A DNA stretch of 64,000 nucleotides from Eukaryota sp. GEM-RC1 (taxonomy: Eukaryota), in assembly GCA_040285855.1 (NCBI GenBank), contig JAUFOQ010000016.1, forward strand, positions 1,860,001 through 1,924,000, read 5' to 3'. Each line of letters opens with the position of its first letter. Positions within the stretch are counted from its first letter, which is position 1. Under the pieces are notes generated by a model. It was not told the origin of the DNA and made no database searches. It saw nothing but the letters and a program-made list of their open reading frames with translations. Positions 28,335-60,379 of the stretch are shown piece after piece. The translations under genes and the position numbers were made by a program.

Positions 28335-29172
28335 TTGATTGATTTGATTTCTTTGTGTTGACGTAGTGTGTACAGATAAATTATTTTGAAAAATTCACAT
28401 GTTATAATTCCACATTTACTACAGTAAGCAGTGTAATTTGTGTGGGTCAGAATAATTCTTCACAAATTTCTGAGAATCGAATTGGAATTATTAGATAATT
28501 AGATCACTCTAATTTTCAACATTAGGAATTCTATTTCTTGTTGCAGTAAGTAATTATTTATTCTAAAGGTACAGTAATAGACTAAACAACCAAAATTTGA
28601 TATCATTAAAACAACACCTATGCTATCAAATATTACACCAGCTTTGTCCTCAAAGAGGAACTCACAGCTAGTGAAGCTTTGGAGATGATTAGGGGAATTG
28701 TAATAAAAATACTAAAAACGATACGATTTAACCATAACAGTAATATAGTCCAAAGCAAATTCAGATATTTGGTGTAGGTACACTTCATCAAAAATCAATT
28801 TACCGAACTACGACAGTGTTCTCTTCAAGGACATCATCTTAATTTTGTTCTACATTATCTCTGACAAGAAAATTGTCTTGTTTTTACCCTAGAAAGTTTT
28901 TAAAAAAAATGTATATTTGCCAGTAATCAGTGGGAGAGCTGTGACTGTTCCCAACTTCCTGCAGTATTTTCAGCAAGTCCGTAAAAGATCAGGTTATTGC
29001 TGAAATTGTCTTTCATTCTCATTGCATATGTAAATCTGCTCCAAATATTGTCTTATTACACCAGATGTTGGTTTCCTTAGAAACATCAAAACAATTGGAG
29101 TTTCTATAGTTAATGTAGTTCATCAGCATCAGTTGTGTGAATGGTGCAAACAATCTAGAAAGACAAAAAATT

Positions 29173-30349: not shown

Positions 30350-30628
30350 GGTTCTACTAGTAGTGTGGTAATACACGTCTACTGCATTAAATTCAAATAC
30401 AATCAGTACAACACTCAACAATTTCCATAACACTACTAGCGTCTCCCTTAGAGAAATAGTCATAAATATGACTTCTTTTATTACCAGCAGTTGACATCAA
30501 AAAACAAACACTGGGAAGGGAAATGTGGTGTGCCCACTTTTGTTTTCCCACTGTTTTTCCACCCAACGTTTTTGAAAATACGGGTAATTCATTGCCTCGT
30601 GATGATACTCTAATTTAAATTGCAAAAA

Positions 30629-30702
30629 TGTTTTCGGGGAGGTTCGAACTCCCGACCATCTGTGTGTTAGACAGATATCCTAACCAACTAGACCACGAAA
30701 AC
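30629..30702 (-). tRNA. tRNA-Val(AAC)
   Basis: GTTTTCG...TCTGT-CTAACAC-ACAGA...GGGAG-TTCGAAC-CTCCC-CGAAAAC-A followed by a T-run. Confidence 0.95.
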
Positions 30703-30899
30703 TGCTTAACGACTTTGGTATGAGAATCCAACACATCTTTGCAGAACAATTTTGACCAAAGAAGACAATTGATTTAACACCACTGGAGTTATCTAAGTCT
30801 CACAACTGCCTCCAAAACTGAATCACCTCTACATTACTCAGTGAAAACGATAAGAATACAAACAGTAACAGAAACATAATAAATTGTGTTTATTAAAAC

Positions 30900-32332
30900 C
30901 TACCGTTTTAAAAGAGCAACCCCTGATTCTCCAACAATAACTAAACCACGTTCATCTTGAGTGAAAAAAGTCTGCTTCGGTCTTGATATTCTAACCAAAT
31001 CGACAGAAATTTCAACTTTTTGAGTTGGATCAAAAGGCTTTGTATCTAAAACCCAAATACTTTTGTTACAACAACCAGACATTAAAAACCACTTCTAGAA
31101 CCAGAAACAGAGCTACATTCAAGAGAGACATTTAGTGGAGGATTAGCAGGATTCCGTAGATTCCAGGAGAGAACAACATTAGAAGAATATGAAGCACATA
31201 CCAAGGATCCGTTTTCTAAACAAACAATGTCAGTAATATTTCCATCAGTTACAGATTGTTCAAGAATAGAAACGCACTTCGACTGTTTAATATCAAATAC
31301 TTGAACGTTATTATTTGAATCTCCAATAAATACTAAACTTCCATCCACGTGACACCTAATCACTTTGGGAATCACGTCATCAAGATGATATTCTTTTATG
31401 ATAGACTTGCTCTGAGCATTTAATAGTAAAGCTCTATCGTTTCCAATAACAAGGAAATGAAGAGGAACTACTGTTAAAGAAGATGAACGGAAGTTATCTA
31501 ATTCAAGATCAAAAGGAGATAATGAAATCTGTTCAACAAAGGAATCTGAAATTAATTCGTAATATTTTAAATGTTGAGAAGTAGTGAAGAGCAATCCTGG
31601 TTTAGAAAGTCTGTTCATTGAATGGAAATCTATTGGAGTTCCAATAAAGTCAAAGAAATTCTTGATTTGACCTCCAAATGACGTGAACATCAACTCCTGA
31701 TTGTGAACAAAAGCCAAGTAATCAGAATCAAGTACTTGAGACACGTGTGTAAAAGACGGATTAGGAAGGTCAAAATAAATAGGATCAGCTGTACTAAAAT
31801 CCTTAGCAAAAGGTATTGATGGTCTAGCTTTGATAAGCTTTTTCCTTTCAACAGTCAAAGCCTTGTTGATTGTGATTAATTCTTCATGAAAGTCTATAGT
31901 TGAAGTAGGCTCAGTGATGACGTCAGAGGGCTCAGAAGGTGATTGTAATTGAGCTTTCAGTAAGTCTCTTTCTGACATTAGGTCTTGAATGACTTTCTGG
32001 CTTTGTTGGTTCTTAAATTCCGCTTCTTTTAACTCTTCACGTGCAGTGGCAAGGGAGAGTCGTAGAGAATGAGTTTCAAGAATGAGAGCTTCCCATTCAC
32101 TGTGTAGGTGACCAAGAAGACCAGGAATAGACATGGTATCAGGTTGTCTTGGTTCTGTTAGAGTAGCACTCTTAAGTTCAATTAAGTCATTGGGAGAAAG
32201 AGAAGTGTTGGTAATGGGACAACGCTGGCCAGTTTCATCAAGGTATTTTAGAACAAGTTCACGTTCAAAGACATAACCTGTTGGAGAAACAACAGGGTGT
32301 TTTGGTATTGTGTTGGATATTGAGCAAAACAT
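30900..32332 (-). CDS. PRP19: Pre-mRNA processing factor 19 (U-box, coiled coil, WD40), copy 1; frameshift near 31089
   Basis: MFCSIS...PVVSP.GYVFERELV.KY...CPIT, SIPGLL.....EWEAL.LET..LR. It has GG where copy 2 has GGG. Confidence 0.93.
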
Positions 32333-34024
32333 TTTGTTGGAAGATTCAATTAAATGCCAAGCAAATGCTCAGTTTCTTATTGGTGTCAAGAACGTTGTTT
32401 AGCAGTTATATTGCATCATAAAGGGAAACTACCAGGTGCTGTGTATTGTAGATCTGAAGCAGGTAAGCCAACATTAGATCCATTCTCTGCTCTGTATCTT
32501 GTCTTGTGAGATTGACCATAGCTGTTTGATTCATCGTAATAAGCTTTTATTGTCTCCAACAGAATGTAACTGTGAAGAATCACTGTCATTTGAACAATCC
32601 AAGGACTTTGTTCTTCAATCTCTATGTACTTACTACTCAATGGCTTTAAGTACCATGGAACTTCATTTTGATGTTTATTTTCAGTTGTATCAATCATCAG
32701 TTTATTGCACAGTTATTCATACTGATATTTTGTTATTTCCATTTGTTTTTGTTTCAAAGAAGAGTGTTTACATTTCCACTTCTAGTAGTGATCCTGTTTG
32801 TGACCTTGAGGTGCTCAATAATATCCAACTCTCTTACTGCTTGGAGAAGATGTTAGTTATTTGTTTAGTTACTGATCATGAGGTTGACTTCTTGAGTTTG
32901 AACATTGATGACGTTTTGGAACTTGACAAGGAGTTTGAAGTGGTTTACAAGAGTTAGGTCACGAACTGGTTCAATCAACTGCGTTGTGATTACAGTCTTT
33001 ACCATTCATGTAAGACCATCTGTTTCCAACTCAAGCAACTGTTCTAAATTCTAGAGTACTACTCTAAAGTGATGTTGTCTCAACCACTACTCAGTGTTTA
33101 GAATGAGGGGCTCGGATTTTGAATCATAGTCCTGCTGCTATGACACTGTAGTAGTCTGTATAATCTGATCACTTTCAAAACCTTGTGTAGTTTAGTAATT
33201 TTGATTGAAAATTGAGGTAACAATTACTGGTACGGTGATGTACATAAAGCTTTTTGTTTTACAAACAAAATTTTACTCTGGGTTTTTAGTTCATCGTTTT
33301 TAGGGGAATATGGAAAAACTGGAGAGAAAGACTATTATTAGAAAAACAATCAAATGCTAAAAGACCATCGATTGTGTAGCTACGGTAAACTGACAGCACT
33401 GAATCCTATTTCCAAAATTTAAGTGTATTACAATATGTGTACGAGGCAACCACACAACAAGAAACAAAGGATAAATACAACTATTAAAACAAACTTCCTA
33501 AAGTCGAAACGTAGTTACATGTACCACAACAGCCAAGTAGAAGAACTACTATTTCAGTAGAAAGAGGTCGCAAATGGCTGAAAGTACATATTAATGTGTC
33601 TTTGTGAATTTAAAGTAATTTTCAACTTACGTTTTTTATGATACAGTATGTATTGCTGTGTCCTTCATTTTCCAAGCTTACTTCAATTTCAGAGCAAATC
33701 AGGAGAGCAGTAGTTATCTATACCTTCAGTCAAATACACGTCAAGGAGACTATCATCATCCACGGATTGACTTAAGTAACTACATAAAAGAAGTGTTAGA
33801 TTCTAACACCCCAACTGCTCTAAATAATTGCGTCGCTTAAATTTTTGGTCATGTCATTGCTGTCCACAAAGAGCTGGCATGTCTATAATGCTAGTAATCG
33901 CCAGAAGGTGCTGGTGGATGAACATACAGCTCAACAAAAAGAAAACAATCTTCAAGACACTATTTGAAACAGCGAGCTCAAAAACGACTTAATCGTTTAA
34001 GAAACAAGGCTGGACTGTCTCCAC

Positions 34025-36707
34025 ATGCTTTTGAAGACCCCAGTACGGACAGCCTCCAAAGTTCCCCCTGACTCAATGAACAGAAAACGAAGAGGACTTC
34101 CGCTTGTTCCTCCTGTCTCTACTCCTTCTAAAAGACCAAGTTTCCAAGATACAGAGGACCCAATGTCTTCTACCAGGATTGCACCAATTCTTAAAGATAT
34201 CCCCTCTTGATTTACTCTTTGGTTATTTGTATGTTTCCCAACACCAAGATCATCCTTCTTTACATTGGATCTATTGTTGTGTTTGTAGGCTTAAACTACG
34301 TTTTCTCCACATACCTTCTATTCCTTCCTCTTCGATCAAAGTTCGATGTTACTGTAATCTTCTGGGAATCCTCTCTCCCTTACATCTTGCTTCTCTTTTA
34401 TGGTTCCTGGGCTATCCCTCACGCTCTCGTCAGCTACATTGTTCTAAGACAAGCAGTTTTTAGAATGCTTTGGGGGACCAGTACTTTGTTCTATCTAGCA
34501 ATCGTACAAGCAACATTTGCCATCACTACCTCTCTCATTGCTCGTAATCGCTATAAGTTAGACTTCCGAAGGCCTAAGCGAGAAGATATCGTTGCATATG
34601 TTCCGTATATCTTTGTTGGTCCTTTTATTGCGTATTGGTTTGCCATACTTTGGGTTCACTTGATTGAGGATTTCCCTATAACAATATTGGAAGGTGTTTT
34701 AATCTGGATGACTGTGAGCTCTTTTACGTTCGCTTTGATTGCACCCTTCTTTGGTCAGATTTTGTATTGTTTTGATCATTTAATTCTCAAATACACGCCG
34801 TATTTTGCCAGTGCGATTCCTTCTCAATATAGAACTTCTTCTATGGACCATGGCTGTTTCTATTGTATACATCCACCCTTTAAGGAAATTCTAATGCATT
34901 TGGTGATCATTATCGTCTCTGGGATCTATTTTGGTCTTCTTCTTTGGGTATCCGCCATTGACTCTCCTTTCTACCAATTTGTTCTTGTTCCTTTTGGTTT
35001 CATCTTCCTCTATCTCGGGTTTCGTCCAACTGTAACTTGGGTTTGACTACGTTCTTGCTCTAATTCCAGCTATTCAGTTTATTCATTGTTATTCTGCTCA
35101 TGGCCGTTCTCTTTGGAGTTGAATTATTCCCAGGTATAGGCGTAACTTTCTTCTCTCTTGGGGGAGGTCTCCTTGTTCTGTTCGCTGCCATTAACTCCGA
35201 CGATCTTCGAAGAACAAAGAAGGAAGTGGAGGATCGGTTGAAAAGTAAAGTTGACAGAAGGACGCAGCAACTAGAAGTGTCCAGAAATCATTTGGCTGCT
35301 TTTCTTGATACCATTAGTAAGTTACCTGCAGGGATTAGCCACGAAATCAAGACATCCTTGAACCATTGTGTATCTTCTCTAGAGATTCTATGTCAGGATG
35401 AGGCCAAGTGTTTGCATTCCCAATGTTCACGACCTCTGCACGGGCTTCACTTCTTAGTTGATGATTTGCTATTCAAGTATACTAATCTTGACCTTACTGG
35501 AACTTCATCTTTGAATGTTCTGTCCTTGGTTGAATCCGTTTCAAACTCTTTGATATTGTTAATACATGATGTACATCTTGAGTACTATGAAACTTCTTTT
35601 CATTCATTTGAGTATATTGTTTCAAGTCATGACCTTGGACTTACTAAATTGTTTCAGTTCATGTTTAGGCAATTGTTCTGGACTAAAACACGTGTAATCA
35701 TGAAGGTATCTCAACAATTGATTGATGATTCTCTTTTGTTTTCCTTTTCTGGAGAAGATAGTTTCAATCACTTGACCTCGTCACGTGTTGGTCGTCGAAG
35801 TTCTGTCGATGCTAGTGTTGTTGATTTACTGGAAATGTCACATCAACTAGCCGATTCATTAGGATTTACCTTTATTCATTCGTTTAATCCTGACTCTGGT
35901 CATTTAGTATTGGAGTTGAGCTTTTCGAGCTTTGTTATAGAGAAAAGAGATCGATCTGAGGTGTTGTCTCTAATTTCTGATAGATTCTCCTCCTTTGCTA
36001 TCCACTCCTTGTCTGAAACAACACGGGATTACCTTTGTCTACTGCTCTCTCCTATATTATCTTTAGTAGAAGATATTGAAAAGGAAAAAGACATTGACTC
36101 TGACCGCAATTTGATCATTATTGATGAAAACACTATGAGTGCTGATGATATTGATCGACTCTTAGCTCAAATCAATTCGAAAAAAGAAGGTGGTTTCCCG
36201 ATCTTTATAGGCAATTCTTTCAGAAGAAATTGTATTGCTCAGCCTCTTATTTCAACTCGTTTCTTTAACTTTTTCAACCGTTTGCTTTCCACTTCAGCTT
36301 CTCACGATCTTCCTCCAGTTCTTGTGGTTGATGATAACAAAATGAATGTAAAGCTTCTGCAGGCTCTGCTTAGATCACAACAATTGGCCTCTGACAGTGC
36401 TTTTGATGGGGAAGAAGCTTTTCTAAGGTGTAAAAAGAGAATTAATGAAGGGAATCCTTATTTTTTAATTTTGATGGATATTTTGATGCCAAAAATGGAT
36501 GGTGTGGAGGCGACTAAACTCATTCGTGCTTTTGAACGTACCTTCCAAATACAGACTTCTTCTGCTATCCTGGCAGTGAGTGCACACGCAGAAGCTAACT
36601 CAAAAATTATGGATGATGTTAGATCTGTGGGATTTAACGAATTCGTTTCTAAGCCTTTAAAACTGAGTCAATTGAAGCATTTTCTTGTTAAGTATGGCAT
36701 TTCTTAA
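34025..36707 (+). CDS. Membrane hybrid histidine-kinase-like protein (multi-TM, HisKA, degenerate HATPase, receiver); two frameshifts
   Basis: Multiple hydrophobic helices, VDRRT.QL linker, H-box ISHEIKTSLN, and receiver VLVVDDN...LILMDILMPKMDG...AVSA...FVSKP. Frames join at the C-run near 34203 and the G-run near 35040. Confidence 0.8.
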
Positions 36708-40514: not shown

Positions 40515-41382
40515 AATTATTCTTGTTTTCTAACAATTTCTTGGTCTCAGTAGTGTTTACTTTGAATTTCACGGACTTTTTGTGGACCTCGAAGATTATT
40601 AATTCTGATTATTGCTCTGATTTCCTAGCGAATGGCAAAGGAAAAACTAATATGAAATCACAATTAAACAAGATTGTTTTTATACATTACCTAACCTTCA
40701 TTCTGGCCTAGCAAAATCAAAATTGATCTCACAAGAACGCGACTGAATCCTTGGATGATCTTGGATAAGTTGACAATACAGTTAATAAAGTTGTATCTTT
40801 AGAGAAGCTTCTAAGGTGTATTGTTTCCATATTACTAACTAAAGTCACACTCAACCAAAAATGCCATGATTGAACTAATACATGAGCATGGCTTCCAAAT
40901 TGTACAGATGCAATTAGATCTTTGATATTCGAACGACTTAAAAAAACTTAATTATTCTTGTTTTCTAACAATTTCTTGGTCTCAGTAGTGTTTACTTTGA
41001 ATTTCACGGACTTTTGTGGACCTCGAAGATTATTAATTCTGATTATTGCTCTGATTTCCTAGCGAATGGCAAAGGAAAAACTAATATGAAATCACAATTA
41101 AACAAGATTGTTTTTATACATTACCTAACCTTCATTCTGGCCTAGCAAAATCAAAATTGATCTCACAAGAACGCGACTGAATCCTTGGATGATCTTGGAT
41201 AAGTTGACAATACAGTTAATAAAGTTGTATCTTTAGAGAAGCTTCTAAGGTGTATTGTTTCCATATTACTAACTAAAGTCACACTCAACCAAAAATGCCA
41301 TGATTGAACTAATACATGAGCATGGCTTCCAAATTGTACAGATGCAATTAGATCTTTGATATTCGAACGACTTAAAAAAACT
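40515..41382. repeat. Tandem duplication of a ~434-bp unit
   Basis: 40515-40948 and 40950-41382 appear identical except for a T5/T4 run. Confidence 0.95.
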
Positions 41383-41518
41383 GAAGTTATTAACGAGGAA
41401 GTTTAAACAAACAAAAATGCCATGATTGAACTAATACATGAGCATGGCGGTGTACATGGAGTACATGGCGACCATTTACATCTGTTAATCTGTTCTTCTT
41501 CTGAATTGTCCAGAGAAA

Positions 41519-41845
41519 CTAAGATATACCATCAAGCTCTTGCTCAAGATGTTCCAATTGTATCTGAAGATTGGAAATTTTGAATAATGTTACGTAAACA
41601 ATGTGATCCGTAGTAAATGGTATTCTAGTTGGTGGGTTTGAATACATCACAAAGTCGAAACAAAGTTCCCAAAACGGCTGTTGGGTCAGCCACTGGGAAT
41701 GCCCAGGCTCGTAAAGAGCGTACAGTCTCGCAAGAAGACAGCCATATACAGCAATCCGTTGTTTGGAACAGAACTGTTCATCAATGGCCAGACACACATG
41801 GGGCTCGAAGAATTTGCCAATGGTGGTACCGAGTGTAATGGTCAT
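41519..41845 (-). CDS. Truncated paralog of the Fanzor N-terminus (108 aa; may be a pseudogene)
   Basis: Colinear with the first ~95 aa of the 48706 protein: KFF.P, QF, AV...LLAR, WLT.Q.FW..CF.FV..S.P, PF..D..VY..L. Confidence 0.8.
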   Translation of the reverse strand: MTITLGTTIGKFFEPHVCLAIDEQFCSKQRIAVYGCLLARLYALYEPGHSQWLTQQPFWELCFDFVMYSNPPTRIPFTTDHIVYVTLFKISNLQIQLEHLEQELDGIS

Positions 41846-43111
41846 GTGGTGATTTTGATGATTTACATTCAGTTTCCATTCAATTTTAGAAGGTTTTTTA
41901 TCTTAACTATTTTATTCAAAAGAATATACATCCGTGAATGTGGTCAACGCCAATTGAATGTAATGGGTTGTGAATTCGTAATCTTACTCTATGTTTCATA
42001 CAGATACACATTTAAGAAACATTGATTGGTCATATGTTTCATGCATTTCACAACTTCTGTAAGCTGTGGGACTTCCTCTACCAGTAAGAATTATCAATTA
42101 CAATTTGTAACTTGGTCTCTTACATTCTATAGTCTTGGACTTCACATTTGGAGCCCAACACTAACCTTTCTTCTCTTCACACACTTTCCTTCTCAAAATA
42201 CTGTTCATAGCACTTCCTTTCTCCTTCTGTTCTCCTCTTTTGCTTTGATATAAATAAGGGACTACGGCTTTGGTAGAGACGTTGTGCTGGAGGAAGATTC
42301 TGTTGTTGTGGTGATACTCCTTCATGTATCTCAGATATACTTGCTGTCTTGTGTTCCTCATAGCTATCTCTTTCTTTGGTATACTGTATCATCTTGAATG
42401 ACGGCAATTTATCACTGCCTTGTCTTTGAACTCACCAGTATCATCAGTAGAATAGCCCGCCTTTTAGCTTTTATTTCACTTTTTATGAGTCATGACTTTG
42501 TTTTCCGATATTTACGTGGGTGTACAGTGTTCGTGATCAGTTCATGAACCACTGTTCTTCACATGATATATGTAAGATGGTGTTAGACTATGGTACTTTC
42601 AGCACTAGCTATTTATTGAGAATATACATACGTTTACCTAATAAAACGATCACACATATCTGCTATACACAGAGCTTCGATAACTCGGGACTACACACAA
42701 AGGAAATGGAGAAATTGGCTTACCACATAAGAACCCAAGATGGTTGTTATCTAGACATAAGTAGTTTCAAGCAGCCCTTAGGTTTACAAGTAACAAGACT
42801 GACATGTAATGTTTGGCATTGATCATGTCAAAAGTGTATACCAGTTTGAAGGAGTCAGGAGAGTCAAGGATTATGAGTTTGGACACACTATTACAGAGAC
42901 ACTGGAAGGAAAAGACGGATATGAATGCATTTTGATGTGAACAGTCTGTGGGAAAGAGCTGTAAGAAAGTTGTGAAATATGCATTTCAGGTGAAAAGCAC
43001 AGTAGTAGTAGAAGAATATGACAAAATTATTTTCAAGACTTACTTATTTTCATTACATTTGGGAGGGAGGGTGGGTTTCTTCCTCTCGTGTACACCTCTT
43101 TTGAACGTTCT

Positions 43112-43399
43112 CAATGTAGGATGAGTTCCAGCTCTCCTCTCTCTACACCGCTCCAACTGCACCGCTCCAATGTATTGTGGGTTCTTCTGTATCTCCAATT
43201 TCGTTCCGTTCAGACTTCACTAAAGCTTTGATTGCAAAGGGATTGGGGATGAAGTATCCAATGTAGGATGAGTTCCAGCTCTCCTCTCTCTACACCGCTC
43301 CAACTGCACCGCTCCAATGTATTGTGGGTTCTTCTGTATCTCCAATTCCGTTCCGTTCAGACTTCACTAAAGCTTTGATTGCAAAGGGATTGGGGATGA
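43112..43399. repeat. Tandem duplication, 147-bp period
   Basis: 43112-43252 and 43259-43399 are near-identical (one substitution seen). Confidence 0.95.
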
Positions 43400-43543
43400 C
43401 GTAGTTGTAGTTGTAGTTTTATATGTATTTTGACTGGGCCAATGTCTTTTGATTGTTGAGCCTAGTCATGTTGGGTTTTCCTTCTTTATTCGTTTTCACT
43501 GTGTGATTTTGAATTTAGAATGAAAGTCTCAAATAAATACAAC

Positions 43544-46263: not shown

Positions 46264-48456
46264 ATGAGTAAACTAGTCTTCAACAGCATTAAAGGACATC
46301 CCACTACTTTGGCCTGTGCTATTGCATCTGAGCGAAAAGAACTACCAGCGTCCTTCAACTATGTGGATTATCAACATTTCCCTGTTGTTTTAGACACGGC
46401 AAGAGGTCCTTTAGTGGATCCCATTGCACTACTCTATGTCATTGATCCTTCCCTGTTCCCTGCTTCCCAGCTATCCCACATCTTCACTCTCATCAATCAA
46501 TGTGTTTACTTCCTCTCCAAGGCTCGTCTTTTCCTAGCAAATGCCACTGGTTCTGCTTCGATTAAACCTGATCTAGTAGAACGTTCCAGTCAATTCATAT
46601 CCGATTTCATCAACTCTCTATCATCTAACATTTCTTCTCCCAATCACTTCTTCATTGGAGATTCCCTTACTGCTGCTGATATCGTGATCTTTTCCTACCT
46701 CTTCCCCTTCCTTTCATCTCAGTCAAACCTCTTTTCATCACCCCCTGAACCTCTTGTATCTTGGTTTAATCATCTCTCTTCAATCTCCTCCTTCCATAAC
46801 GCCATCGCTCTTGTCTGTAGCACCCCTGAACACGTTCTCTCTTCCCTTAAACTTTTCATTGAAGTTCTCCCTTCAGAAGTCCAACCCCACCAACTTTCCA
46901 CCCCCTCCAAAACCCCCGTCTACATCACCACTCCTATCTACTACGTCAATGGCACCCCCCACGTTGGTCATGTTTACACTACCCTACTATGCGACGTTGT
47001 CTCTAGATGGTATAGAACCAGAGGACTTCCTGTTTACTTCCAAACTGGTACTGACGAACATGGTCAGAAGGTAGCAGAGTCTGCAATTGCTAAGGGTTTA
47101 ACACCTAAACAAATGTGTGATGAGGTTTCAACTATGTTTAAGGACGTTTTTGATAACTTTAATTTGAGTTATGATCGATTTATCAGAACCACTGACGAAG
47201 ATCACGGTAAGGCTGTTGCTGTTATGTGGAATAAGCTCAAAGACAACGGGCACATCTACATGGGTGTCCACGAGGGCTGGTACTGCCTTTCAGATGAGGC
47301 CTTCTTGACAGAGAGTCAGGTGGAGGACAAGGAGATCAATGGAGAGGTTGTTAAGGTCTCCAAAGAGAGTGGAAATAAGGTTGTAAGATTCAAAGAAGAG
47401 AATTATATGTTTAGGTTATCATCTTTCCAAGACAAGTTGTTAGAGTATTTCGAAAAGAACCCTGATTTCATTGTTCCAAAGTTTAGACAGTCTGAAGTTG
47501 AACAATTTATCAGATCTGGTCTTTGTGACTTCTCTGTGTCAAGATCTAATGTTTCATGGGGAATCAAAGTTCCTGACGATCCTTCTCACACAATCTATGT
47601 CTGGATAGATGCCCTTACTAACTACTTGACTGGTATTGGCTTTCCTAATGAGAATAAAGGATGGCCAGCTGACGTCCACGTACTAGCTAAGGATATCACG
47701 CGATTCCATGCTATCTATTGGCCAGCAATGCTCATGGGAGCGGGACTAGAGATTCCAAAGAAGTTAGTTATTCACGGATGGTGGACTGCTAATAAGACCA
47801 AAATTTCAAAAAGTTTGGGAAATGTATTTGATCCTTTTGAAGTAGCTCAGAAGCACGGTCTGGATGTTCTTCGTTACTTCTTGTGTCGTGAAGCCTCCAT
47901 GGCTACTGACGGTGATTACAGTGAGAATGCTTTGATTGCTAGAAAGAACAGTGATTTGGCCAATGATCTCGGAAACCTTCTATGTAGAGCTGTTTCTGTC
48001 TCTCTGGTTCCCAATCAAACTGTCCCTACGTGTGGGGAGTTGATTGAAGAGGATAACGTGATTGTGAGTGCAGTTAATAACCTGCCTATTTTGTATGATC
48101 AGGCTTTAGAGAACTTCAATATCCAAGGAGGTTTGAAGGAAGTTTGGTGTGTCTTGGATCTTTTGAATAAGTATATCGTTGATCAAGCTCCTTGGAGGAC
48201 TATGAAAGTGGGATCAGATGAAGCCAAGGCAAGGGTAGAAACAAACATGTATGTATTGGCTGAGTCACTGAGAATTGTTGCTTGTTGTTTATCTTCAGTT
48301 ATGCCTCAAGTTTGTGATATAATCTTTGATCAACTTGCTGTTCCTAAAGAGTTAAGGACAGGTGATGATAGTTTTAATTTTGGACTGTTACCAGCTGGGT
48401 TGAAGTATCCTGAAGAAAAAGCTATTCTTTTTGAGAAAACGAAGTTAGAGGAATAA
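46264..48456 (+). CDS. Methionyl-tRNA synthetase with N-terminal GST-like domain
   Basis: FFIGDSLTAADI (GST-C-like), YITTPIYYVNGTPHVGH, GTDEHGQK, YVWIDAL, KDITRFH, KISKSLGN, LANDLGNL. Confidence 0.95.
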   Translation: MSKLVFNSIKGHPTTLACAIASERKELPASFNYVDYQHFPVVLDTARGPLVDPIALLYVIDPSLFPASQLSHIFTLINQCVYFLSKARLFLANATGSASIKPDLVERSSQFISDFINSLSSNISSPNHFFIGDSLTAADIVIFSYLFPFLSSQSNLFSSPPEPLVSWFNHLSSISSFHNAIALVCSTPEHVLSSLKLFIEVLPSEVQPHQLSTPSKTPVYITTPIYYVNGTPHVGHVYTTLLCDVVSRWYRTRGLPVYFQTGTDEHGQKVAESAIAKGLTPKQMCDEVSTMFKDVFDNFNLSYDRFIRTTDEDHGKAVAVMWNKLKDNGHIYMGVHEGWYCLSDEAFLTESQVEDKEINGEVVKVSKESGNKVVRFKEENYMFRLSSFQDKLLEYFEKNPDFIVPKFRQSEVEQFIRSGLCDFSVSRSNVSWGIKVPDDPSHTIYVWIDALTNYLTGIGFPNENKGWPADVHVLAKDITRFHAIYWPAMLMGAGLEIPKKLVIHGWWTANKTKISKSLGNVFDPFEVAQKHGLDVLRYFLCREASMATDGDYSENALIARKNSDLANDLGNLLCRAVSVSLVPNQTVPTCGELIEEDNVIVSAVNNLPILYDQALENFNIQGGLKEVWCVLDLLNKYIVDQAPWRTMKVGSDEAKARVETNMYVLAESLRIVACCLSSVMPQVCDIIFDQLAVPKELRTGDDSFNFGLLPAGLKYPEEKAILFEKTKLEE

Positions 48457-48705
48457 TGGAAAAATCTTAGTTCTTCTGAATCAATAAATATCCAGATGGA
48501 TCATGTTTTTCTGTCATCTTGCAGAAGATCTACAAACTCCACCAGGACAAGCTAGCACATGTAGTAAAGATTTGGATAAGAACATTCGACAAACAGAAGC
48601 TTGGTGTTGTATCATTTTCAGATGTTGACGCAATGAAACATACTGTAGTTCCTCCATAAACCCAACATACAATAAAATCCACAATATTTCATAAATTTAT
48701 TGAAC

Positions 48706-50504
48706 ATGACTACCACGACCTCCACGGTCACGTGTTCACTTGCCAAGTTTTTTGACCCGCCAGCTCGGGCAGTGATGAACAGGCAATTTCGGTACCTTCG
48801 AGACGTTGCTGTTCAGTCAACTTTACTGGCCCGGGTGTTTGTGCTCCAGCACCCCCACTTAGCACGCTGGTTGACTGACCAGCGTTTCTGGTACCAGTGC
48901 TTTGGGTTCGTTGCTCACTCTGAGCCGAAAGTAAACCGCCCCTTTGAGAACGACAATGGAGTGTACACTGCACTGCATCTGTCGTCGAGTCTTCCGCCAG
49001 TATCCATTTGGCCGTTCCCCCCTCTTGGCCGACACAAACCGACACGCTGGTGTTACTCACAACTCTTGAGTGATAGGTCACGACAGTTGTCTGAAGCTTT
49101 TCAACAACTGATGGCCGATGGTCCAGTCAGTTGGAAGCTGAACTTCTTCCGGACCGCTGCTGTATTCCTCGACTGCCCGACCCCTAAGGGATACGCTTCT
49201 GCTGTTGTACGTGGTGCTCAACCTGGAGCATCACTGCAGCAATGGTGGAATGCTCATCACCAGCAAACTCTGGCCACCTTTAATCACTTAGTCGGGGATG
49301 TTGTCCTGTTCAATAATCTATTGACAGAACGGTCTGTTGCACTCAATGAAACGAACACCTCATTTCTGTTCGCAGCTGGACTGAACCTGTTGTCCGCTCT
49401 CGAGGATGCTGCGCCAGATTGTATGCGCCGCCATGCTCTAGTTCCAATGGCCAGCTATGCTCCAGTGTTTGTATCATTCTCTCAGGAAGTGGAGAGACAC
49501 TTCACAGAGTTCAACTTCTCAAGTACTCTCAAAAGTAACCCACTGAAAACGTTTAGAAAACGCCCCCGTTTCCAGACTTACACCCTGGCCTCTGATGGTG
49601 TAAGTTTGAGGATAACTTTTCCACAAAGCCGAAAAAAACAAGGAATCGCCCTACCAAGGAGCAGTTTGAGTCAAGGAGGGCAAGTGGCTCCGAAGACTTC
49701 AAGGTTAAGTCTCGAAAGAGAAAGTGTAACCTACAGAAGAAAGTGGCTCCGTCACGACGACGTGCGAGAACAGCTGATTTCGAACCTCCTCCTGATGAAG
49801 ATTGGTTATGGTGTGCAATTGATCCCAACCACAGTAACCTATGTGGTTGGTCTATTGGAACCAACACTGACTATTTATTGGACTCTGGTATTACACTGGC
49901 ACCAAAAGCCAAGGCTATCAATACTGTTATGTTTGGTGCTTTGAGCAACTCTACGTCGAACACCTATTCCGTTCAGAACATGTACCTGTATCTGCTCGAG
50001 ATATCGACCACTATTGTTGATCAATATATGAGTAAGAACAGTCTAGAACGGCGTTTATTAAATGGGAACAGGCCCAACCTACGGAGAAACAAGTTCGACT
50101 TCTTCATAAGAAAACAGAAACGATTTGATTTATTTGCTCAAAATTTGAAAAATATGGCACAAGGAAGCCAAATCAGAGTTTGGTTTGGGACAGGAGGTGC
50201 TAGCCCATCTAGGCAGCAAGTGAAGTCTCCAAGAAAGGGATTCCTTCAATATCTCAAAAGATTCTTTCCCGTTATTATGGGCGATGAATACTTCACTTCC
50301 GCAAAAACTAACTGCTGTAAAGTGAGGCATCAGTTGATATATCATGAAGTAGATGGAGTAAGAAGAGTGAATCACGCCATATTTCGATGTCCAACATGTG
50401 CTCAGGTTTGGTCAAGAGATATTTCAGCCTCCAGAAATCAACTTGAGATCGCTATAGAGGGTTACTTATTTGGAACTAGGCCTGAAGCTTTCCAACGTAC
50501 TTAA
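48706..50504 (+). CDS. Fanzor (TnpB-derived RNA-guided endonuclease, Fanzor1-like); one frameshift near 49617-49638
   Basis: SDGVSLRITF (TDG-type motif), RuvC-I AIDP, VWFG, DEYFTS, CC...CPTC, RuvC-III WSRDISASRN and terminal RP.AF.R. Restoring one base gives about 599 aa. Confidence 0.88.
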
Positions 50505-50600
50505 TTATTATCTATGTATTGGCCGATGAAATTCAAGTTACCTTGAATGGAGGCCGTAATGTGGTGCTTCGGCAGAAAAGAGGTGAGTATGAAGAAGCTT
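50505..50600 (+). ncRNA. Candidate Fanzor omegaRNA (scaffold plus guide; boundaries approximate)
   Basis: GGCC(50521)/GGCC(50552) enclose a perfect ATTCAAG-TTAC-CTTGAAT hairpin, followed by TGC-TTCG-GCA (cUUCGg tetraloop, 50565-50574), directly after the stop codon. Confidence 0.6.
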
Positions 50601-50871
50601 TCTTTGAAAGTGTAAAGTATGCATTTCTTGGAAAATCCACAGTAAGTTAATACACTTTGTTTTTTGTGATACTTCGCTTACAAATGATTTAACCAACAGC
50701 ATCTTTACCATTGTATGGGTTAAACCCATGTGAATGGACATCGTTCGTTCTCCTACTTTTAGTAGTAGAGTAATACTGTTACTGTTATTGTACTAGACTA
50801 CTAGAGGTTTATAGCTGACCATCCAAATTTGACAAACAAATTTTTCTTAACATAATTTGACCCTGTCCGAA

Positions 50872-52050
50872 ATGCAATGCCTAGACAAACAACTTGACTC
50901 TCTTTATTTTACCCGAGATTATATCTTTCCTGTGGATAATTCGGTACTTCTTTGTAAACGAGATGAAGTTCTTCTGCAACTTACCAACTTAGAATCCAAC
51001 AATCAATTACCGAAAGCTCTCCTATGGTTTTATAGAGGTAGAACGCTTGCTGGATCAAAATCTGATCTTGAATTAGCCGAAGCTTACATCTCTAAAGCAA
51101 TCAAACTGGATTCATCTCTTGTTCATGCATACTTCTATCTAGCTGATATTCACACTCTTCGCCAGCAATGGAACTCAGCCCAACAGCTTCTTGAAACGTC
51201 CGTTTGTAAGTATCCCACACCGCAAGCTTTAAGACTTCTGTCTAGAGTTATCAGACAAAAGACTCCACCATCAATTGACAGATCTGTTTCGTTAGCTAAA
51301 GAAGCTCTAGATCTTGAAGTCAACTCTTCTGAAGGATGGCTTGTTTACGCATTGGCACTCACTACTAAGTTCTTTCATAGTACGCTTCCAACTCCACAGT
51401 CTCTAGAAAAGTGTCTATCTGCCTTTAACATGGCTTGTAAACTAGGACAACTCTACAATCCTGACCTGTTTTTTAATAGGGGGCAAGTTTTTAAATATTT
51501 AGAACGCTATCAAGAAGCACTCGATGACTTCAGCAAAGCACTGCAGCTCGATTCTACTTTATTAATATCATCCACAGAAATATCTTCAATAGTTCAATTC
51601 TTGAAATCCATATCAAGCACTCTAAATCGTTTCGAATCCAACCTCAAGAAAAAGAAACGAGATAAGTTACTAGCGGGATTTCGACAAGAAGAGACTTTGT
51701 ATTCTACACACAATATTCCTCCATTTGGAAAGCCTCTTGCACTTAAAGTATTTGCTCTTCTATCATCCACAGACAAAATCCCTTCTTCAGTGTTTTGTTA
51801 TGACTCTGAACTGTCGTGGATCGTGCTTTCTGTCTATAATGTAAAGATTGAGAGCTTTAAAGTGGGTCAGACCCTGATGCTTTATAATGCAAGGGTAGTA
51901 GATGATGAAATTCACTGGGAAGATGAACTTTTCAAATTTCGAGTGATACGGATTGTCAACATTTCTGATCTCAACATAATAGGGACAAACATTGGTTCTC
52001 ACCACCTGTCAGCTCCAATATGCACTGTTAACAGTGTGGAAAAACTATAA
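50872..52050 (+). CDS. TTC5: Tetratricopeptide repeat protein 5 (TPR + OB)
   Basis: LDSLY..RD.IF, AE..ISKAIKLD, SVSLAKEAL.L, NPDLFFNR...KYLE.Y.EAL..F..A..LD, and a C-terminal OB-like D....VLSVYN. Confidence 0.85.
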   Translation: MQCLDKQLDSLYFTRDYIFPVDNSVLLCKRDEVLLQLTNLESNNQLPKALLWFYRGRTLAGSKSDLELAEAYISKAIKLDSSLVHAYFYLADIHTLRQQWNSAQQLLETSVCKYPTPQALRLLSRVIRQKTPPSIDRSVSLAKEALDLEVNSSEGWLVYALALTTKFFHSTLPTPQSLEKCLSAFNMACKLGQLYNPDLFFNRGQVFKYLERYQEALDDFSKALQLDSTLLISSTEISSIVQFLKSISSTLNRFESNLKKKKRDKLLAGFRQEETLYSTHNIPPFGKPLALKVFALLSSTDKIPSSVFCYDSELSWIVLSVYNVKIESFKVGQTLMLYNARVVDDEIHWEDELFKFRVIRIVNISDLNIIGTNIGSHHLSAPICTVNSVEKL

Positions 52051-52583: not shown

Positions 52584-54254
52584 ACAAGATCTGAACGTCA
52601 GAGAGACATTATTTAAGAAGTCTGTAAGCATTAGAGATGAATTTTGCAGAGTTGCAACTAGAACCACTTGCCATAACGCCAATACATCCATAAGCTTATG
52701 GAATTTTTTCTCATACAGTGTGTTCTTTTCAGTGGTATGTCTACTTCCATAAGTTACAACTACGTCTATATAAATCCAAATCATTTGTTATCATTCACGA
52801 AAAGTCTATAGCACTACAATGTACATCTGAGATCTGAAGGTGCTGCAGTTTGGTTAGAACAAGACAATTGATTATGAAAGTACAGTATATATTATGTAAT
52901 TCATAAATGATTTTTTGTCTTCAGCCTCGAATAGGAGTCGTTGTTTCCAAATCAAAAGAAAAGAGTACTAAAAGTGGTCCTGCAATAGAATAGTAAAAAA
53001 AAATCAATCTAAACTTTATTCGGTGCCCAATAAGATTACATTCCTGCAAAAGCATGAAATTGCAAAAACAAACAAATAATACTAAGATTAAATCCAAACG
53101 ACTTCATCACCATCCGGTAAAAGATTACGTTTTTCAACATTAACCTTGACACCAAACTTGTACAATTTCTCAACTAGTCAAGAGAAATAGAAAGGCATAT
53201 TCCGATTTAGGCAAGACACTATGCGGTTTTTCCATTCAGCCATTCTAAACTTACACTTCTCTTCTTTACACAGTTCTTCGAACTAAAATAGAATAGTTAT
53301 TCAACTAAGCACCACACTGCCCTATAGACGGAATAACAAGCAATTATTTATTAACCAAGCACACTTTGTGATCAAAATTGCAGTTTTGTCAAATGTCCAA
53401 ACTGAATAGAAATAAAATGCATAAAAATGTGTTTACTGATTCTAGTAAGTCAGATTCGCACATTATAACACTCACTTATATTTTGCGGTTGTTAGTGAAA
53501 ATAGAACTCTTTTACAAACTAATGTCTCTTTCCTGCGACATTCTTCAGCCTCACAACATGTCGAATCATCGAATCGTTTCAAAGTGCTTCTAAAGGTACA
53601 TTTAGAGAGATACTCCAGAGTAAATGAGTATATAGTATTTTATTTCTCGCCGCTTACATTTTATGAATCAGTAAGTTAATCTAGTGCTTTTATAGAGGAA
53701 AGAGTTCTAATTATACGGATGTTTTGAAGAATCTTAATGAAAATTCATAATCCAAGTTTTTATGGCAAATTTAATGAAATAATTTTTTTCATCTCCAAAG
53801 CTTTATTAGCAGTGAGTTCCTTTTATGAGGACAAAGCTGTTGTAAGATTCGATAGCAACGGGTGTTGCTTTAAAGAAATCAAATTTTAGTTGTTTGATCT
53901 ATTACACCTCTAATAAAATAAAGAGTCTAAAACTCAATATCATCAAAACAAACGGTGTCAGTTCTATTTGGAACCAACACTAGCTGATCCTAAACATGTT
54001 CTAATAGAACCAACACTAAACCTTTACTTTGTTTGAGAATTAAAGGCATTTATAGTTAGATAATGATAAGTTTGTTACTTGTCAAGAAAACTGAACCACT
54101 TTTAAGACATTGAATGTGATTAACAGCCATCACAAATGATGCATTACTCTTACAATGTGGGAGCTAGTAAATGATATTCTGCACTAGAAATTAAATAACA
54201 GATCTAGATCAATCGATAATCCTTGTGTTAAATCATTGACCGATTTAATGATAA

Positions 54255-55229: not shown

Positions 55230-56525
55230 ATGCAGCTCTCTCTTAAACACGGCCGTGACATACAAAGTGTTACTGTATCTCCAACAGATACTGTTGAATC
55301 ACTCAAACAACAGATCTATTCCATTTTCTCGGTTCCTCCTGAAAATCAGAAATTGATCGGAAAAGGTGGAATGATCAGGAAGGATACAGCCTCTCTATCT
55401 GAAATCAACTTGACCGAAAACTCCACAATCACAGTCATTGGTAGTGCCCAGCCAAAACCTATCTTCTCTTCAGAAAAGCCTCTTTTGTTGAAGATATCCC
55501 TCAATCTCAGTCCCAATCACTTATCCAAGTCCCAGCACGTGGTTTAACCAATCTAGGTAATACTTGTTACTTATCCTCGGTATTACAACTTCTTGTACGT
55601 ATTCCTCACCTCACTACTTCTCTAAAGAACGCCCCTTCGTTACCTCCCTTGATAACCACACTTCGTGACACTCTCTCTCAAATATCTTCTTCTGGATCAG
55701 CTGTTTCTCCTTTTGCTTTGATCTCTGCCTTTCGATCTTGCTATCCCCAGTTCGCTGAAAGAACTGAGCAAGGTTTCTACGCTCAACAAGATGCTGAAGA
55801 AGCAATCTCTTCCTTGATTGCTAGTATCCGTGACCTACCCACCATCCCTAACGTTCCTCGTCTCACTGCTTCTTCATCTCATCCCCCTCTTACAAACCTC
55901 TCTCATCAACTGTTTGGAATGGAGATGGCAGGGAAAATGACAAACATTGGCAATGAGGCGGAAGTCATTGAAGTACCACCTCAAATCATAACTAGTATTA
56001 AAGTTACAATCTCTCCTGAAGATGACTATATGGAACAAGCAGTAGGAAGCTTTTTGAATGGAACTGTGGAGAAGAGAAGTGACTTGACTGGAGAAAACTC
56101 TTTGTTTTCCATTCAGAACCAATTCACGTCATTATCACCCTATCTTTTTGTGTCGTTTGTAAGGTTCGAGTGGAGACAGGATATCTCTCAACGAGTTAAA
56201 ATATTAAAAAAACTAACATTCCCCTTCAGTTTCGATCCAGTTGACTTTTTGTACAGATGAGCTCAAACAGGTTATCCATTCTAGAAGAGAACTGAGTCCT
56301 ACAGCAGCTACTTATGAGTTGACTGGAGTCGTTGCTCATGTCGGCCGCAGTGCTTCTGGAGGTCATTACATGGCTTGGACTAAGGTGCAAAGTGAAGAGA
56401 AGACAGAGTGGGTGCACTTTGATGATGCAAAGGTAGCTGTGGTCAAGGAGGAGAAGATTAAAGAGTTGGTGGGTGGAGGTGATCAACCAATTGCCTACAT
56501 TTTGTTGTATAGACTGTGTGTATAA
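55230..56525 (+). CDS. USP14: Proteasome-associated deubiquitinase USP14/Ubp6; about three frameshifts
   Basis: Ubl domain (VPPENQKL), Cys box GLTNLGNTCYL near 55541, QQDAEE, His box H.GRSASGGHY and FDD. Confidence 0.9.
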
Positions 56526-57979
56526 GTGTTCAGTGAATAAATAGCAGTTTTCAGTCAAATGTTTGTTTAAAGAATCTCACGTTTTACTTTAATCCTAATT
56601 ACAAATGTATACAGTGAGATTCACGTTGACTGCTTCTAAAAACGGATTATGAAGACAAATTTTTTTAAAATAATCATAATCCAAAACTAAAAGAAACAGA
56701 TCCAGTGAGATTAATTGATTAAAAGAATTGATTAAAAATGTTTCTTAACAGATATACACATTTTATACACAAACTGTATTTACAGTGTAATACGATACTC
56801 GAATAATGTGAATACAACAGTCAATTTAAGATATCCAAAACAAAAACTCTCCCATCAACTTAACTGGAGCCTAAAGAAGCAGTTTCCAAGTCTACTGATT
56901 AAGGGTAAGGCTCATCAGGATCTAATGCTTCATAATCCGACCACTCATCACCAGAGTGAATAAAATGTACAAGAGTTTGCGGTGATTCAATGTCACTCAA
57001 ATTCACTGGAGATCCTGGTTGAACAACTGTTGACCAAGGCTCTTGAAAAGAGATGACGTCATCGTTGGAGTTGATAACGTGTTCTGATTAATAGAAGAAG
57101 GTATCAGAGGACTTTCAAAGATCAAATCTGACTTAAGAATAGGCATTTGTAATATGTAGTTGGAAAAAAGAGACAAAATAATAATTACTACTGTTGCATC
57201 AATTACTAAGTTTAAATTAGTAAATTTAGTAATTTGATCGCAAACTTAGTAAAGTCAGTAGTCCGTTCTAATCATAAACAATCCTGATTCGTTTCAAATA
57301 ATTAAACTTGAAAATTTCACACAAATCAGTCAGTAGCATGTGTGTGATTAAACCTAACTCTTGTAAACCACTTCAAACTCCTTGTCAAGTTCCAAAACGT
57401 CATCAATGTTCAAACTCAGGAAGTCAACCTCATGATCAGTAACCAAACAAATCACTAACATCTTCTCCAAGCAGTAAGAGAGCTGGATATTATTGAGCAC
57501 CTCAAGGTCACAAACAGGATCACTACTAGAAGTGGAAATGTAAACACTCTTCTTTGGAAACAAAAACAAATGGAAATAACAAAATATCAGTATGAATAAC
57601 TGTGCAATAAACTGATGATTGATACAACTGAAAATAAACATCAAAATGAAGTTCCATGGTACTTAAAGCCATTGAGTAGTAAGTACATAGAGATTGAAGA
57701 ACAAAGTCCTTGGATTGTTCAAATGACAGTGATTCTTCACAGTTACACTCTGTTGGAGACAATAAAAGCTTATTACGATGAATCAAACAGCTGTGGTCAA
57801 TCTCACAAAGCAAGATACAGAGCAGAGAATGGATTTAATGTTGGCTTACCTGCTTCAGATCTACAATACACAGCACCTGGTAGTTTCCCTTTATGATGCA
57901 ATATAACTGCTAAACAACGTTCTTGACACCAATAAGAAACTGAGCTTTTACTGGGCATTTAATTGAATCTTCCAACAAA

Positions 57980-59413
57980 ATGTTTTGCTCAATATCCAAC
58001 ACAATACCAAAACACCCTGTTGTTTCTCCAACAGGTTATGTCTTTGAACGTGAACTTGTTCTAAAATACCTTGATGAAACTGGCCAGCGTTGTCCCATTA
58101 CCAACACTTCTCTTTCTCCCAATGACTTAATTGAACTGAAGAGTTCTACTCTAACAGAACCAAGACAACCTGATACCATGTCCATTCCTGGTCTTCTTGG
58201 TCACCTACACAGCGAATGGGAAGCTCTCATTCTTGAAACTCATTCTCTACGACTCTCTCTTGCTACTGCACGTGAAGAGTTAAAAGAAGCGGAATTTAAG
58301 AACCAACAAAGCCAGAATGTCATTCAAGACCTAATGTCAGAAAGAGACTTACTCAAAGCGCAATTACAATCACCTTCTGAGCCCTCTGACGTCATCACTG
58401 AGCCTGCTTCAACTATAGACTTTCATGAAGAATTAATCACAATCAATAAGGCTTTGACTGTTGAAAGGAAAAAGCTTATTAAAGCTAGGCCATCAATACC
58501 TTTTGCTAAGGACTTTAGTAAAGTTGATCCTATTTATTTTGACCTTCCTAATCCGTCTTTTACACACTTGTCTCAAGTACTTGATTCGGATTACTTGGCT
58601 TTTGTTCACAATCAGGAGCTGATGTTCACGTCATTTGGAGGTCAAATCAAGAATTCCTTTGACTTTATTGGAACTCCAATAGATTTTCATTCAATGAACA
58701 GACTTTCTAAACCAGGATTGCTCTTCACTACTTCTCAAAGTTTAACATATTACGAATTAATTTCAGATTCCTTTGTTGAACAGATTTCATTATCTCCTTT
58801 TGATCTTGAATTAGATAACTTCCTTTCAGCTTCTTTAACAGTAGTTCCTCTTCATTTCCTTGTTATTGGAAATGATAGAGCTTTACTATTAAATGCTCAG
58901 AGCAAGTCTATCATAAAAGAATATCATCTTGATGACGTGATTCCCAAAGTTATTAGATGTCATGTTGATGGAAGTTTAGTATTTATTGGAGATTCAAATA
59001 ATAACGTTCAAGTATTTGATATTAAACAGTCGAAGTGTGTTTCTATTCTTGAACAATCTGTAACTGATGGAAATATTACTGACATTGTTTGTTTAGAAAA
59101 CGGATCCTTGGTATGTGCATCATATTCTTCTAATGTTGTTCTCTCTTGGAATCTACGGAATCCTGCTAATCCTCCACTAAATGTCTCTCTTGAATGTAGC
59201 TTTGTTTCTGGTTCTAGAACTGGGTTTTTGATGTCAGGTTGTTGTAACAAGAGTATTTGGGTTTTAGATACAAAGCCTTTTGATCCAGCTCAAAAAGTTG
59301 AAATTTCTGTTGATTTGGTTAGAATATCAAGACCAAAACAGACTTTTTTCACTCAAGATGAATGTGGATTAGTTATTGTTGGAGAATCAGCGGTTGCTCT
59401 TTTGAAACGGTAG
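57980..59413 (+). CDS. PRP19: Pre-mRNA processing factor 19, copy 2 (intact, 477 aa)
   Basis: Same motifs as copy 1, in an uninterrupted frame. Confidence 0.93.
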   Translation: MFCSISNTIPKHPVVSPTGYVFERELVLKYLDETGQRCPITNTSLSPNDLIELKSSTLTEPRQPDTMSIPGLLGHLHSEWEALILETHSLRLSLATAREELKEAEFKNQQSQNVIQDLMSERDLLKAQLQSPSEPSDVITEPASTIDFHEELITINKALTVERKKLIKARPSIPFAKDFSKVDPIYFDLPNPSFTHLSQVLDSDYLAFVHNQELMFTSFGGQIKNSFDFIGTPIDFHSMNRLSKPGLLFTTSQSLTYYELISDSFVEQISLSPFDLELDNFLSASLTVVPLHFLVIGNDRALLLNAQSKSIIKEYHLDDVIPKVIRCHVDGSLVFIGDSNNNVQVFDIKQSKCVSILEQSVTDGNITDIVCLENGSLVCASYSSNVVLSWNLRNPANPPLNVSLECSFVSGSRTGFLMSGCCNKSIWVLDTKPFDPAQKVEISVDLVRISRPKQTFFTQDECGLVIVGESAVALLKR

Positions 59414-59611
59414 GTTTTAATAAACACAATTAGTTATGTTTCTGTTACTGTTTGTATTCTTATCGTCTTCACTGAAGAATGTAGAGGGGATTCAGTTTTG
59501 GAGGCAGTTGTGACACTTAGATAGCTCCAGTGGTGTCAAATCAATTGTCTTCTTTAGTATAACATTGATGTGCAAAGATGTGTTGGATTCTCAACCATAA
59601 GCAACTAAGAA

Positions 59612-59684
59612 GTTTTCGTGGTCTAGTTGGTTAGGATATCTGTCTAACACACAGATGGTCGGGAGTTCGAACCTCCCGAAAACA
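59612..59684 (+). tRNA. tRNA-Val(AAC), copy 2
   Basis: Identical to 30629-30702 except one C missing in the C-run at the T-stem/acceptor junction. Confidence 0.9.
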
Positions 59685-60379
59685 TTTTTTGTTTATGAAA
59701 GATGTTGACGTTCTGACAATGAGATGATTAGGACGTTATTGTAACATTAAAACTAACATTATCTTTCATTGGACAGTGTCCAATAAATTGTTTTGATACT
59801 AATAGAAATATTTGATGAGAGAACGATTGACATGAATATTGTTTTCCTCTTGCATTTTACAGCACCTTGATGCCAGTTTGAATCACATCTCTGTGAACCG
59901 ATACATGAATTTGAGATGGTTTAGTAATTCATCAATGAGTATTTTTCTGCAGTGTGTAGAACAAAATTGACATAGGAATTGTTTATGTGTTGAAGCGACT
60001 GCACAACAATGAACCAATATCATACGGCTATTAAAACAAATTGATATCAGATAATCAACAAAACATTACAGTAAAGTAATTGAAAAGGGGGCATTAAGGT
60101 CAAAATCCATATCTAAAACTTTTACAAAAACAGAAACTAAATACAAGTACTGCAATGGCTGCCCAAATCTACTGAATAGTTACTCCCATATAACTTGGCC
60201 TAAATCCCGTCAAAATAGCGGTATACATGTCTACGCTTATTTATTTCATAACATCAATTATTTCGTTAGGTATTGTTTTACTCGGTGGCATGGGATTTTG
60301 TTGCAATTTCAGAGAGTTTTCAATTATAGAGGTTGCAATTGGAGAGAGTTTACTGTCTAGTAATTGTTTTAAACCCGAA

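Follow-up and report, generated by a model that had tools for sequence, protein, structure and literature searches.

Fanzor1 elements that carry no transposase of their own are the published norm. Spu-1 of Spizellomyces punctatus occupies 42 loci with no transposase between its repeats, and the loci of GtFz1, NlovFz2 and MmeFz2 have neither repeats nor transposase, according to Saito 2023 (PMC10432273). Several TIR-less or unclassified Fanzor families appear in Bao and Jurka 2013 (PMC3627910), and non-autonomous associations of Fanzor in Jiang 2023 (PMC10530073). In characterised Fanzor1 systems, the element supplies the scaffold from its right end, and the adjoining flank supplies the guide (Saito 2023, PMC10432273; Yoon 2023, PMC10711439).

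The locus analyzed here belongs to GEM-RC1, a free-living anaerobic flagellate which, together with TZLM1-RC and TZLM3-RCL, is assigned to the genus Skoliomonas in the genome report (PMC11316075). The window, the whole 64,000-nucleotide stretch of DNA under analysis, comes from a compact, intron-poor eukaryote. Within it, a Fanzor gene runs on the plus strand from its ATG at 48706 to its stop at 50504, preceded by the host methionyl-tRNA synthetase gene MetRS (46264..48456, +; Pfam tRNA-synt_1g, E=4e-102) and followed by the host gene TTC5 (50872..52050, +; Pfam TTC5_OB, E=4e-12, plus TPR repeats). The 5' flank (48457..48705, 249 bp) comprises the MetRS 3' end and the putative left end of the element. 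Coordinates bear out that the three genes are co-oriented, with spacers of 249 and 367 bp. The placement is nevertheless not unusually tight, contrary to the initial annotation: the flanks of the Fanzor gene are long for the GEM-RC1 genome, because ten other gaps between adjacent host ORFs of the window measure only 5-256 bp. Absence of a transposase holds for the whole window, since none of the ~95 reading frames scanned contains a transposase Pfam domain; of the 113 frames in the window that reach 75 aa, those outside the scan are mostly antisense or overlapping frames within genes. The Fanzor gene does not form one ORF as first described. It is split by a one-base frameshift, the 5' frame covering 48706-49944 and the 3' frame being open over 49596-50504, with a -1 shift joining them. 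The remark that its 5' half looked GC-rich was well founded: at 51.0% GC, it is the richest 915-bp stretch of the window, compared with a maximum of 45.8% among 1226 other stretches of that length. GC3 in this half (157/305, 0.51) exceeds that of 12 host ORFs (2088/5917, 0.35; p=2e-8), while in the 3' half (119/294) the difference from host ORFs is not significant (p=0.07).

Translation, alignment and structural modeling identify the gene as a Fanzor1, a predicted RNA-guided DNA cutter, which without the shift would encode a protein of ~599 residues. Its 5' half (48706..49620, +, 305 codons), delimited by translation, alignment, the P0031 model and GC content, holds an N-terminal WED strand, the REC domain, an SDG motif (49591-49599) and a further WED strand. 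The 3' half (49620..50504, +, 294 codons), recognized by Pfam PF07282, alignment and a motif census, includes a basic, NLS-like linker and carries the split RuvC D-E-D triad, intact in this copy: the RuvC-I Asp of a DPN motif (49821-49823, +), the RuvC-II Glu at a shifted site within DEYFTS (50286-50288, +) and the RuvC-III Asp (50418-50420, +). A C-terminal zinc finger (50313-50399, +) is made of CC-x3-H and CxxC. PF07282 is present in all 14 aligned family members. Yoon 2023 (PMC10711439) places an alternative RuvC-II glutamate of Fanzor just upstream of the zinc finger, at a distance of six residues. Here the glutamate lies at this alternative site with nine residues to the first Cys, three more than is usual in Fanzor. 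The same paper describes a Fanzor1 “TDG” feature, a motif plus strand in the WED domain, which reads SDG here and SNG, TDG or TNG in relatives. It also calls the RuvC-I DPG motif “near exclusive” to Fanzor, not absolute. DPN instead stands in this subfamily and across almost the entire skoliomonad clade to which it belongs; a sister skoliomonad family carries DPG, and in the motif census a few unrelated matches are DPN as well. As the motif is only near exclusive, and fold and tree place the protein within Fanzor1, we regard DPN as a derived variant that does not disqualify it.

The fold was assessed on a relative standing in for this protein: P0031, which is intact and 48% identical to it, was modeled with AlphaFold2 (mean pLDDT 84.3). 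Foldseek matched the model to SpuFz1, PpFz1 and GtFz1 (E=2e-12 to 8e-9), and its top seven matches are all Fanzor1, whereas mimivirus Fanzor2 reached only E=6e-3. VIA-align ranked GtFz1 first (Z=17.0 over 454 residues, rmsd 6.7; next 13.2). The nearest ESM Atlas clusters contain PF07282 and PF26935 and are mostly from giant viruses (score 0.98). A sequence search of the PDB returned no match for the 3' half, and a profile gave only weak C-terminal matches.

This gene is one copy among many. A protein search returned 11 clusters, all of them from GEM-RC1, TZLM1-RC and TZLM3-RCL. P0017 corresponds to this locus at 589/589 positions, apart from a 10-residue gap, and belongs to a 90% cluster of eight members, seven of which are named GEM-RC1 proteins; the eighth, a 56-aa Logan piece, differs at 29/43 positions, is unrelated and was excluded. 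With P0117 and P0269, two further GEM-RC1 copies from another cluster, the subfamily totals nine loci on five contigs in the GEM-RC1 protein set, at 92-99% identity. Five full-length copies are 97.3-99.3% identical, and all six copies with a complete RuvC keep the D-E-D triad. Among related subfamilies, TZLM1-RC has clusters of 18 and 17 members, and TZLM3-RCL clusters of 10, 41, 14, 9 and 4, with many of the annotated members fragmentary; cluster sizes of this kind with many fragments are a transposon pattern. No related loci were found in metagenome contigs, viral contigs, prokaryote genomes or plasmids. In TZLM1-RC, there is no MetRS-TTC5 synteny, because the two orthologues sit on separate contigs, and no Fanzor locus tag adjoins either gene among the members listed (15/18 and 15/17). 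A quick, midpoint-rooted tree was built from 60 C-terminal regions, comprising 21 skoliomonad rows and 39 longer non-skoliomonad matches. The 21 skoliomonad rows group together (SH-aLRT 99), as do 19 DPN-type rows (98). The tree displays young bursts limited to single species and no one-to-one orthologues across species. We conclude that the family is long-resident, repeatedly amplifying and mobile, and not a fixed host gene.

Other subfamilies have gene models with additional segments. The P0005/P0034 family of TZLM1-RC is a Fanzor1 subfamily with an extra N-terminal, zinc-knuckle-like CxxC-x4-H-x4-C segment. P0008, also from TZLM1-RC, is a single-copy model of 1478 aa in which a truncated Fanzor is joined to a glutaminase-ankyrin protein, which probably reflects either genes merged during prediction or an insertion where a gene starts.

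The locus is probably one copy of a young, multicopy Fanzor1 family, non-autonomous and moved in trans, whose predicted nuclease would cut empty sites. A helper transposase acting in trans would move the Fanzor1 element, itself devoid of a transposase. The predicted RNA-guided nuclease would then cut empty copies of the insertion site, and repair would restore the element. By analogy with characterised systems, the right end would give rise to the omegaRNA, and the host DNA that follows, here the spacer before TTC5, would provide the guide. Such a guide would differ in each copy, aimed at that copy's own empty site, and would therefore not be fixed. Two options had been offered at the outset, a non-autonomous element mobilised in trans and a domesticated Fanzor with a fixed guide; the former fits the data, and the latter does not withstand nine dispersed, near-identical loci.

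The ends of such an element were sought in both flanks, and in agreement with the initial annotation, no TIR/TSD pair from this single copy performs better than shuffled controls. Candidate left ends, both TA-flanked and neither significant, lie at 48641-48642 and 48668-48669. The best pair, TA-flanked 48668/50792, matches at 14/20 positions, a value equalled or exceeded in 29/100 shuffles; the TA-flanked pair 48641/50644 reaches 12/20, and 50/200 shuffles reach 13. A candidate right end of 40 nt that ends in TA (right end A, 50606..50644, +) attains a score reached in 1/150 shuffles. It is 77.5% like 42965-43004, in inverted-repeat orientation, 1.1 kb upstream of a second Fanzor fragment. This likeness, one of many comparisons, is no more than suggestive support for the pair 48641/50644. 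A chance expectation of zero obtained for one such pattern was disregarded, as the pattern had been derived from its own two matches. Joining the flanks at ends A yields an open frame of 83 codons; however, 11/544 TA pairs give at least 84, no family match was obtained, and the join was discarded. Two structured regions are omegaRNA candidates. A hairpin just past the stop codon (50512..50558, +) may form the omegaRNA stem, with a fold energy over 50515-50560, an interval chosen afterwards, of z=-3.0 (2/200 shuffles), compared with z=-1.6 for the wider 50505-50600. Three adjacent stems (50714..50808, +) are an alternative candidate for the omegaRNA or the right end, with z=-2.67 (2/200 shuffles) over 50690-50830, likewise a chosen interval. 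Rfam returned no match for the candidate omegaRNA region. For a young cut-and-paste family, the lack of a significant TIR/TSD pair counts against our preferred reading.

The frameshift was localized by junction scoring against nine relatives. A T4 run, one base short, is the best-supported place for the -1 shift (49617..49620, +; score 371); an A7 run (49632-49638, +) ranks second (325). Five database gene models instead bridge the junction with a 29-nt GT..AG intron (49600..49628, +, from alignment and the P0031 model). Since the segment encodes ten residues that are conserved in intact relatives and correspond to a WED beta-strand (299-305) in the P0031 model, the “intron” is likely a gene-prediction patch; the predicted effect on the fold was judged from that model. 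Gene models differ among copies, with the 29-nt intron in five, another intron in one and out-of-frame read-through in one. The shift is directly visible in two copies only, this locus and P0269, because the T run sits inside the modeled intron. The P0014 copy is explained only if its A run is one base shorter than in this copy. Intact relatives from the other two species have an uninterrupted frame across the junction.

Host genes of the same window are broken in a similar manner. In RPA1, a break at an A run divides the C-terminal Pfam domain between two frames, and Prp19 has one copy broken where its paralogue is intact. Frame breaks, mostly at short homopolymer runs, were located at ~1720 (RPA1), 4960 (Prp3), 18540 (Fcf1) and 60630, in a ubiquitin hydrolase (55445-56525) and, as five frame changes, in a large unassigned gene of 7 kb (21229-28334). 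Six further frame overlaps of the window all contain runs of at least four identical bases, which weighs little given how common such runs are. The assembly was made from R9.4 nanopore reads corrected with Illumina data, according to the assembly description in PMC11316075. Essential genes in the window are split likewise, which makes a homopolymer error in assembly the likely cause of the Fanzor frameshift. Given so many frame breaks, pseudogenes or recoding cannot be called reliably from the GEM-RC1 assembly.

Against an assembly error count the occurrence of the same shift in two copies and of the same intron model in four more, as well as a textbook GTAAGT donor and a length of 29 nt equal to that of a probable host intron in Fcf1, so that a shared real mutation or a real intron behind the frameshift is possible. 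The main rival is a real frameshift inherited from the subfamily founder. The copies would then be passive hitchhikers without active nuclease, whose omegaRNA might serve other Fanzor subfamilies in that genome. Beyond the distribution of the shift, the Illumina correction of the assembly (PMC11316075) and the presence of an intact 596-aa member, P0257, in another GEM-RC1 subfamily are consistent with this scenario. It does not, however, account for essential single-copy genes frameshifted in the same window, for the triad retained wherever the RuvC is whole, or for an A-run length that varies among copies, and we consider it unlikely. Improbable is a regulatory device, either a genuine 29-nt intron or a programmed -1 ribosomal frameshift, that would limit the amount of full-length nuclease. 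The segment does combine its GTAAGT donor with a TAAC branch-like motif and an AG acceptor, and an A AAA AAA slippery heptamer stands in the right phase. Splicing, though, would remove the ten residues predicted to form the WED strand, the gene models of the copies disagree, and both host introns examined (2/2) end in CACAG, unlike the 29-nt segment. As for recoding, homology favors the T run over the A run as the site of the shift, and no stimulatory structure was detected downstream (z=+0.25). An assembly error remains our preferred account of the junction.

The sister of the DPN clade is a TZLM3-RCL cluster of nine models, including P0263, P0261, P0258, P0259 and P0128, in which an EXO1-like nuclease precedes a DPG-type Fanzor1. 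The EXO1-like part matches Exonuclease 1 structures (E=6e-43), and its acidic catalytic residues appear to be kept in the alignment. P0263 contains both the nuclease and the Fanzor1 in full; P0261 and P0258 extend from the nuclease into the likely N-terminus of Fanzor. The Fanzor1 part of these models has an intact triad and is preceded by DVEPNPG, which we take to be a 2A-like motif without the final Pro. Judged from the gene models, a repeated EXO1-Fanzor1 fusion is predicted in Skoliomonas TZLM3-RCL. A full-text search whose scope excludes most subscription papers returned no paper with “Fanzor” and “XPG” together, and if the fusion is real, this family is more novel than the main element.

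This sister lineage bears on a further alternative, in which the family spreads without any dedicated transposase, its copies being copied into RNA-guided breaks that the fused EXO1 of the sister family resects. The failure to find TIR/TSD at this locus, the lack of a transposase domain both in the window and in 29 related proteins scanned, the repeated EXO1-Fanzor1 gene model next to it in the tree and the transposase-less state of Spu-1, GtFz1, NlovFz2 and MmeFz2 (Saito 2023, PMC10432273) all accord with it. Yet homing copies into the same allelic site and leaves new loci unexplained, and the EXO1 family was seen in another species only, making such spread very improbable for the family studied here. 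Extended to the skoliomonad Fanzor1 clade at large, as a long-resident lineage that would spread by nuclease breaks and EXO1 resection without a cut-and-paste transposase, the idea is still improbable; if true, the EXO1 fused to the sister Fanzor would be a natural version of engineered Cas-Exo1 editors. Domestication, with the guide fixed on a virus or transposon, is scarcely credible despite the position between two housekeeping genes, the missing TIR/TSD signal and the intact triad, as it is contradicted by the dispersal and identity of the nine copies, a codon bias unadapted to the host (GC3 0.51 vs 0.35), MetRS and TTC5 being unlinked in TZLM1-RC, and a tree of species-limited bursts. Many near-identical dispersed copies, part of what the initial annotation had itself named as speaking against domestication, are present (nine loci, five contigs); copy number had already largely refuted this option, and domestication is not supported.

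Further repeats and fragments occur in the window. A 108-aa 5' fragment of another Fanzor1 subfamily (41519..41845, -; tblastn E=1e-14 to 1e-19), ~39% identical to the main Fanzor1, is followed by a 435-bp tandem duplication (40515-41391); a 147-bp tandem duplication lies at 43112-43403. An inverted 2.3-kb duplication, 96% identical, carries Prp19 (30624-32959 and 57352-59689), and the copy in 30624-32959 is frameshifted near 31085. In three fragments (5390-6352, 2984-3151 and 13744-13953), the motifs resemble those of the restriction-like endonuclease at the C-terminal end of non-LTR retrotransposons; none of the three has a Pfam match, and model P0167 contains a related piece fused to a Fanzor fragment. 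A short AT-rich repeat occurs three times (28574-28739, 53789-53905 and 3210-3271; 84-85% identity) and is possibly a MITE. Two genes of bacterial-type families were observed in this protist, a GH15 trehalase-like gene (9730-11592) and one that resembles a hybrid kinase and includes a response-regulator domain (35100-36707).

Collectively, these results add a young, apparently active Fanzor1 radiation of at least ten subfamilies in three Skoliomonas species. A full-text search for “Fanzor” and “metamonad” returned no paper, while survey supplements could still list such taxa. Being compact (~600 residues), mostly catalytically intact as far as their residues predict, and of soda-lake origin, these proteins merit consideration for genome-editing screens. 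The near-complete assemblies, with their young dispersed copies, also bring the role of Fanzor for its transposon within reach of testing, since aligning the copies would reveal ends, TAM and guides directly. The finding offers no evidence of a domesticated RNA-guided defence gene in a eukaryote.

Among described systems, SpuFz1/Spu-1 (PDB 8gkh, 9ceu) is the top Foldseek match. As portrayed in Saito 2023 (PMC10432273) and Bao and Jurka 2013 (PMC3627910), Spu-1 resembles this locus in its length of ~2-2.3 kb, a Fanzor1 as sole ORF, a multicopy state with partial copies and the absence of a transposase inside; unlike here, where no repeats are significant, its inverted repeats of 30-33 nt and TA duplication are clear. 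Identity to SpuFz1 in the structural alignment is ~13%, and RuvC-I reads DPN here versus DPG there. GtFz1 of Guillardia theta (PDB 9cer) is the best VIA-align match (Z=17.0), and its loci are reported without inverted repeats and transposase (PMC10432273), in keeping with the lack of significant repeats and of a transposase domain here; its third catalytic residue is Asn (Xu 2024, PMC11423790), in contrast to the canonical Asp of this protein. SfAV and the compact insect-virus Fanzor1s, as far as PMC10711439 details them, are likewise non-autonomous, with only a Fanzor1 of ~600 residues, but have clear TIRs, TTAN duplications and a viral location, whereas no viral locus was found for this family. 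With Fanzor2 and IS607 TnpB (ApmFz2, PDB 9b0l), this protein shares a C-terminal zinc finger and a RuvC whose glutamate is shifted. The structural match is nonetheless weak (E=6e-3, TM 0.22) and no serine recombinase lies nearby, and unlike Fanzor2, this family has the Fanzor1 TDG-like motif together with an enlarged REC.
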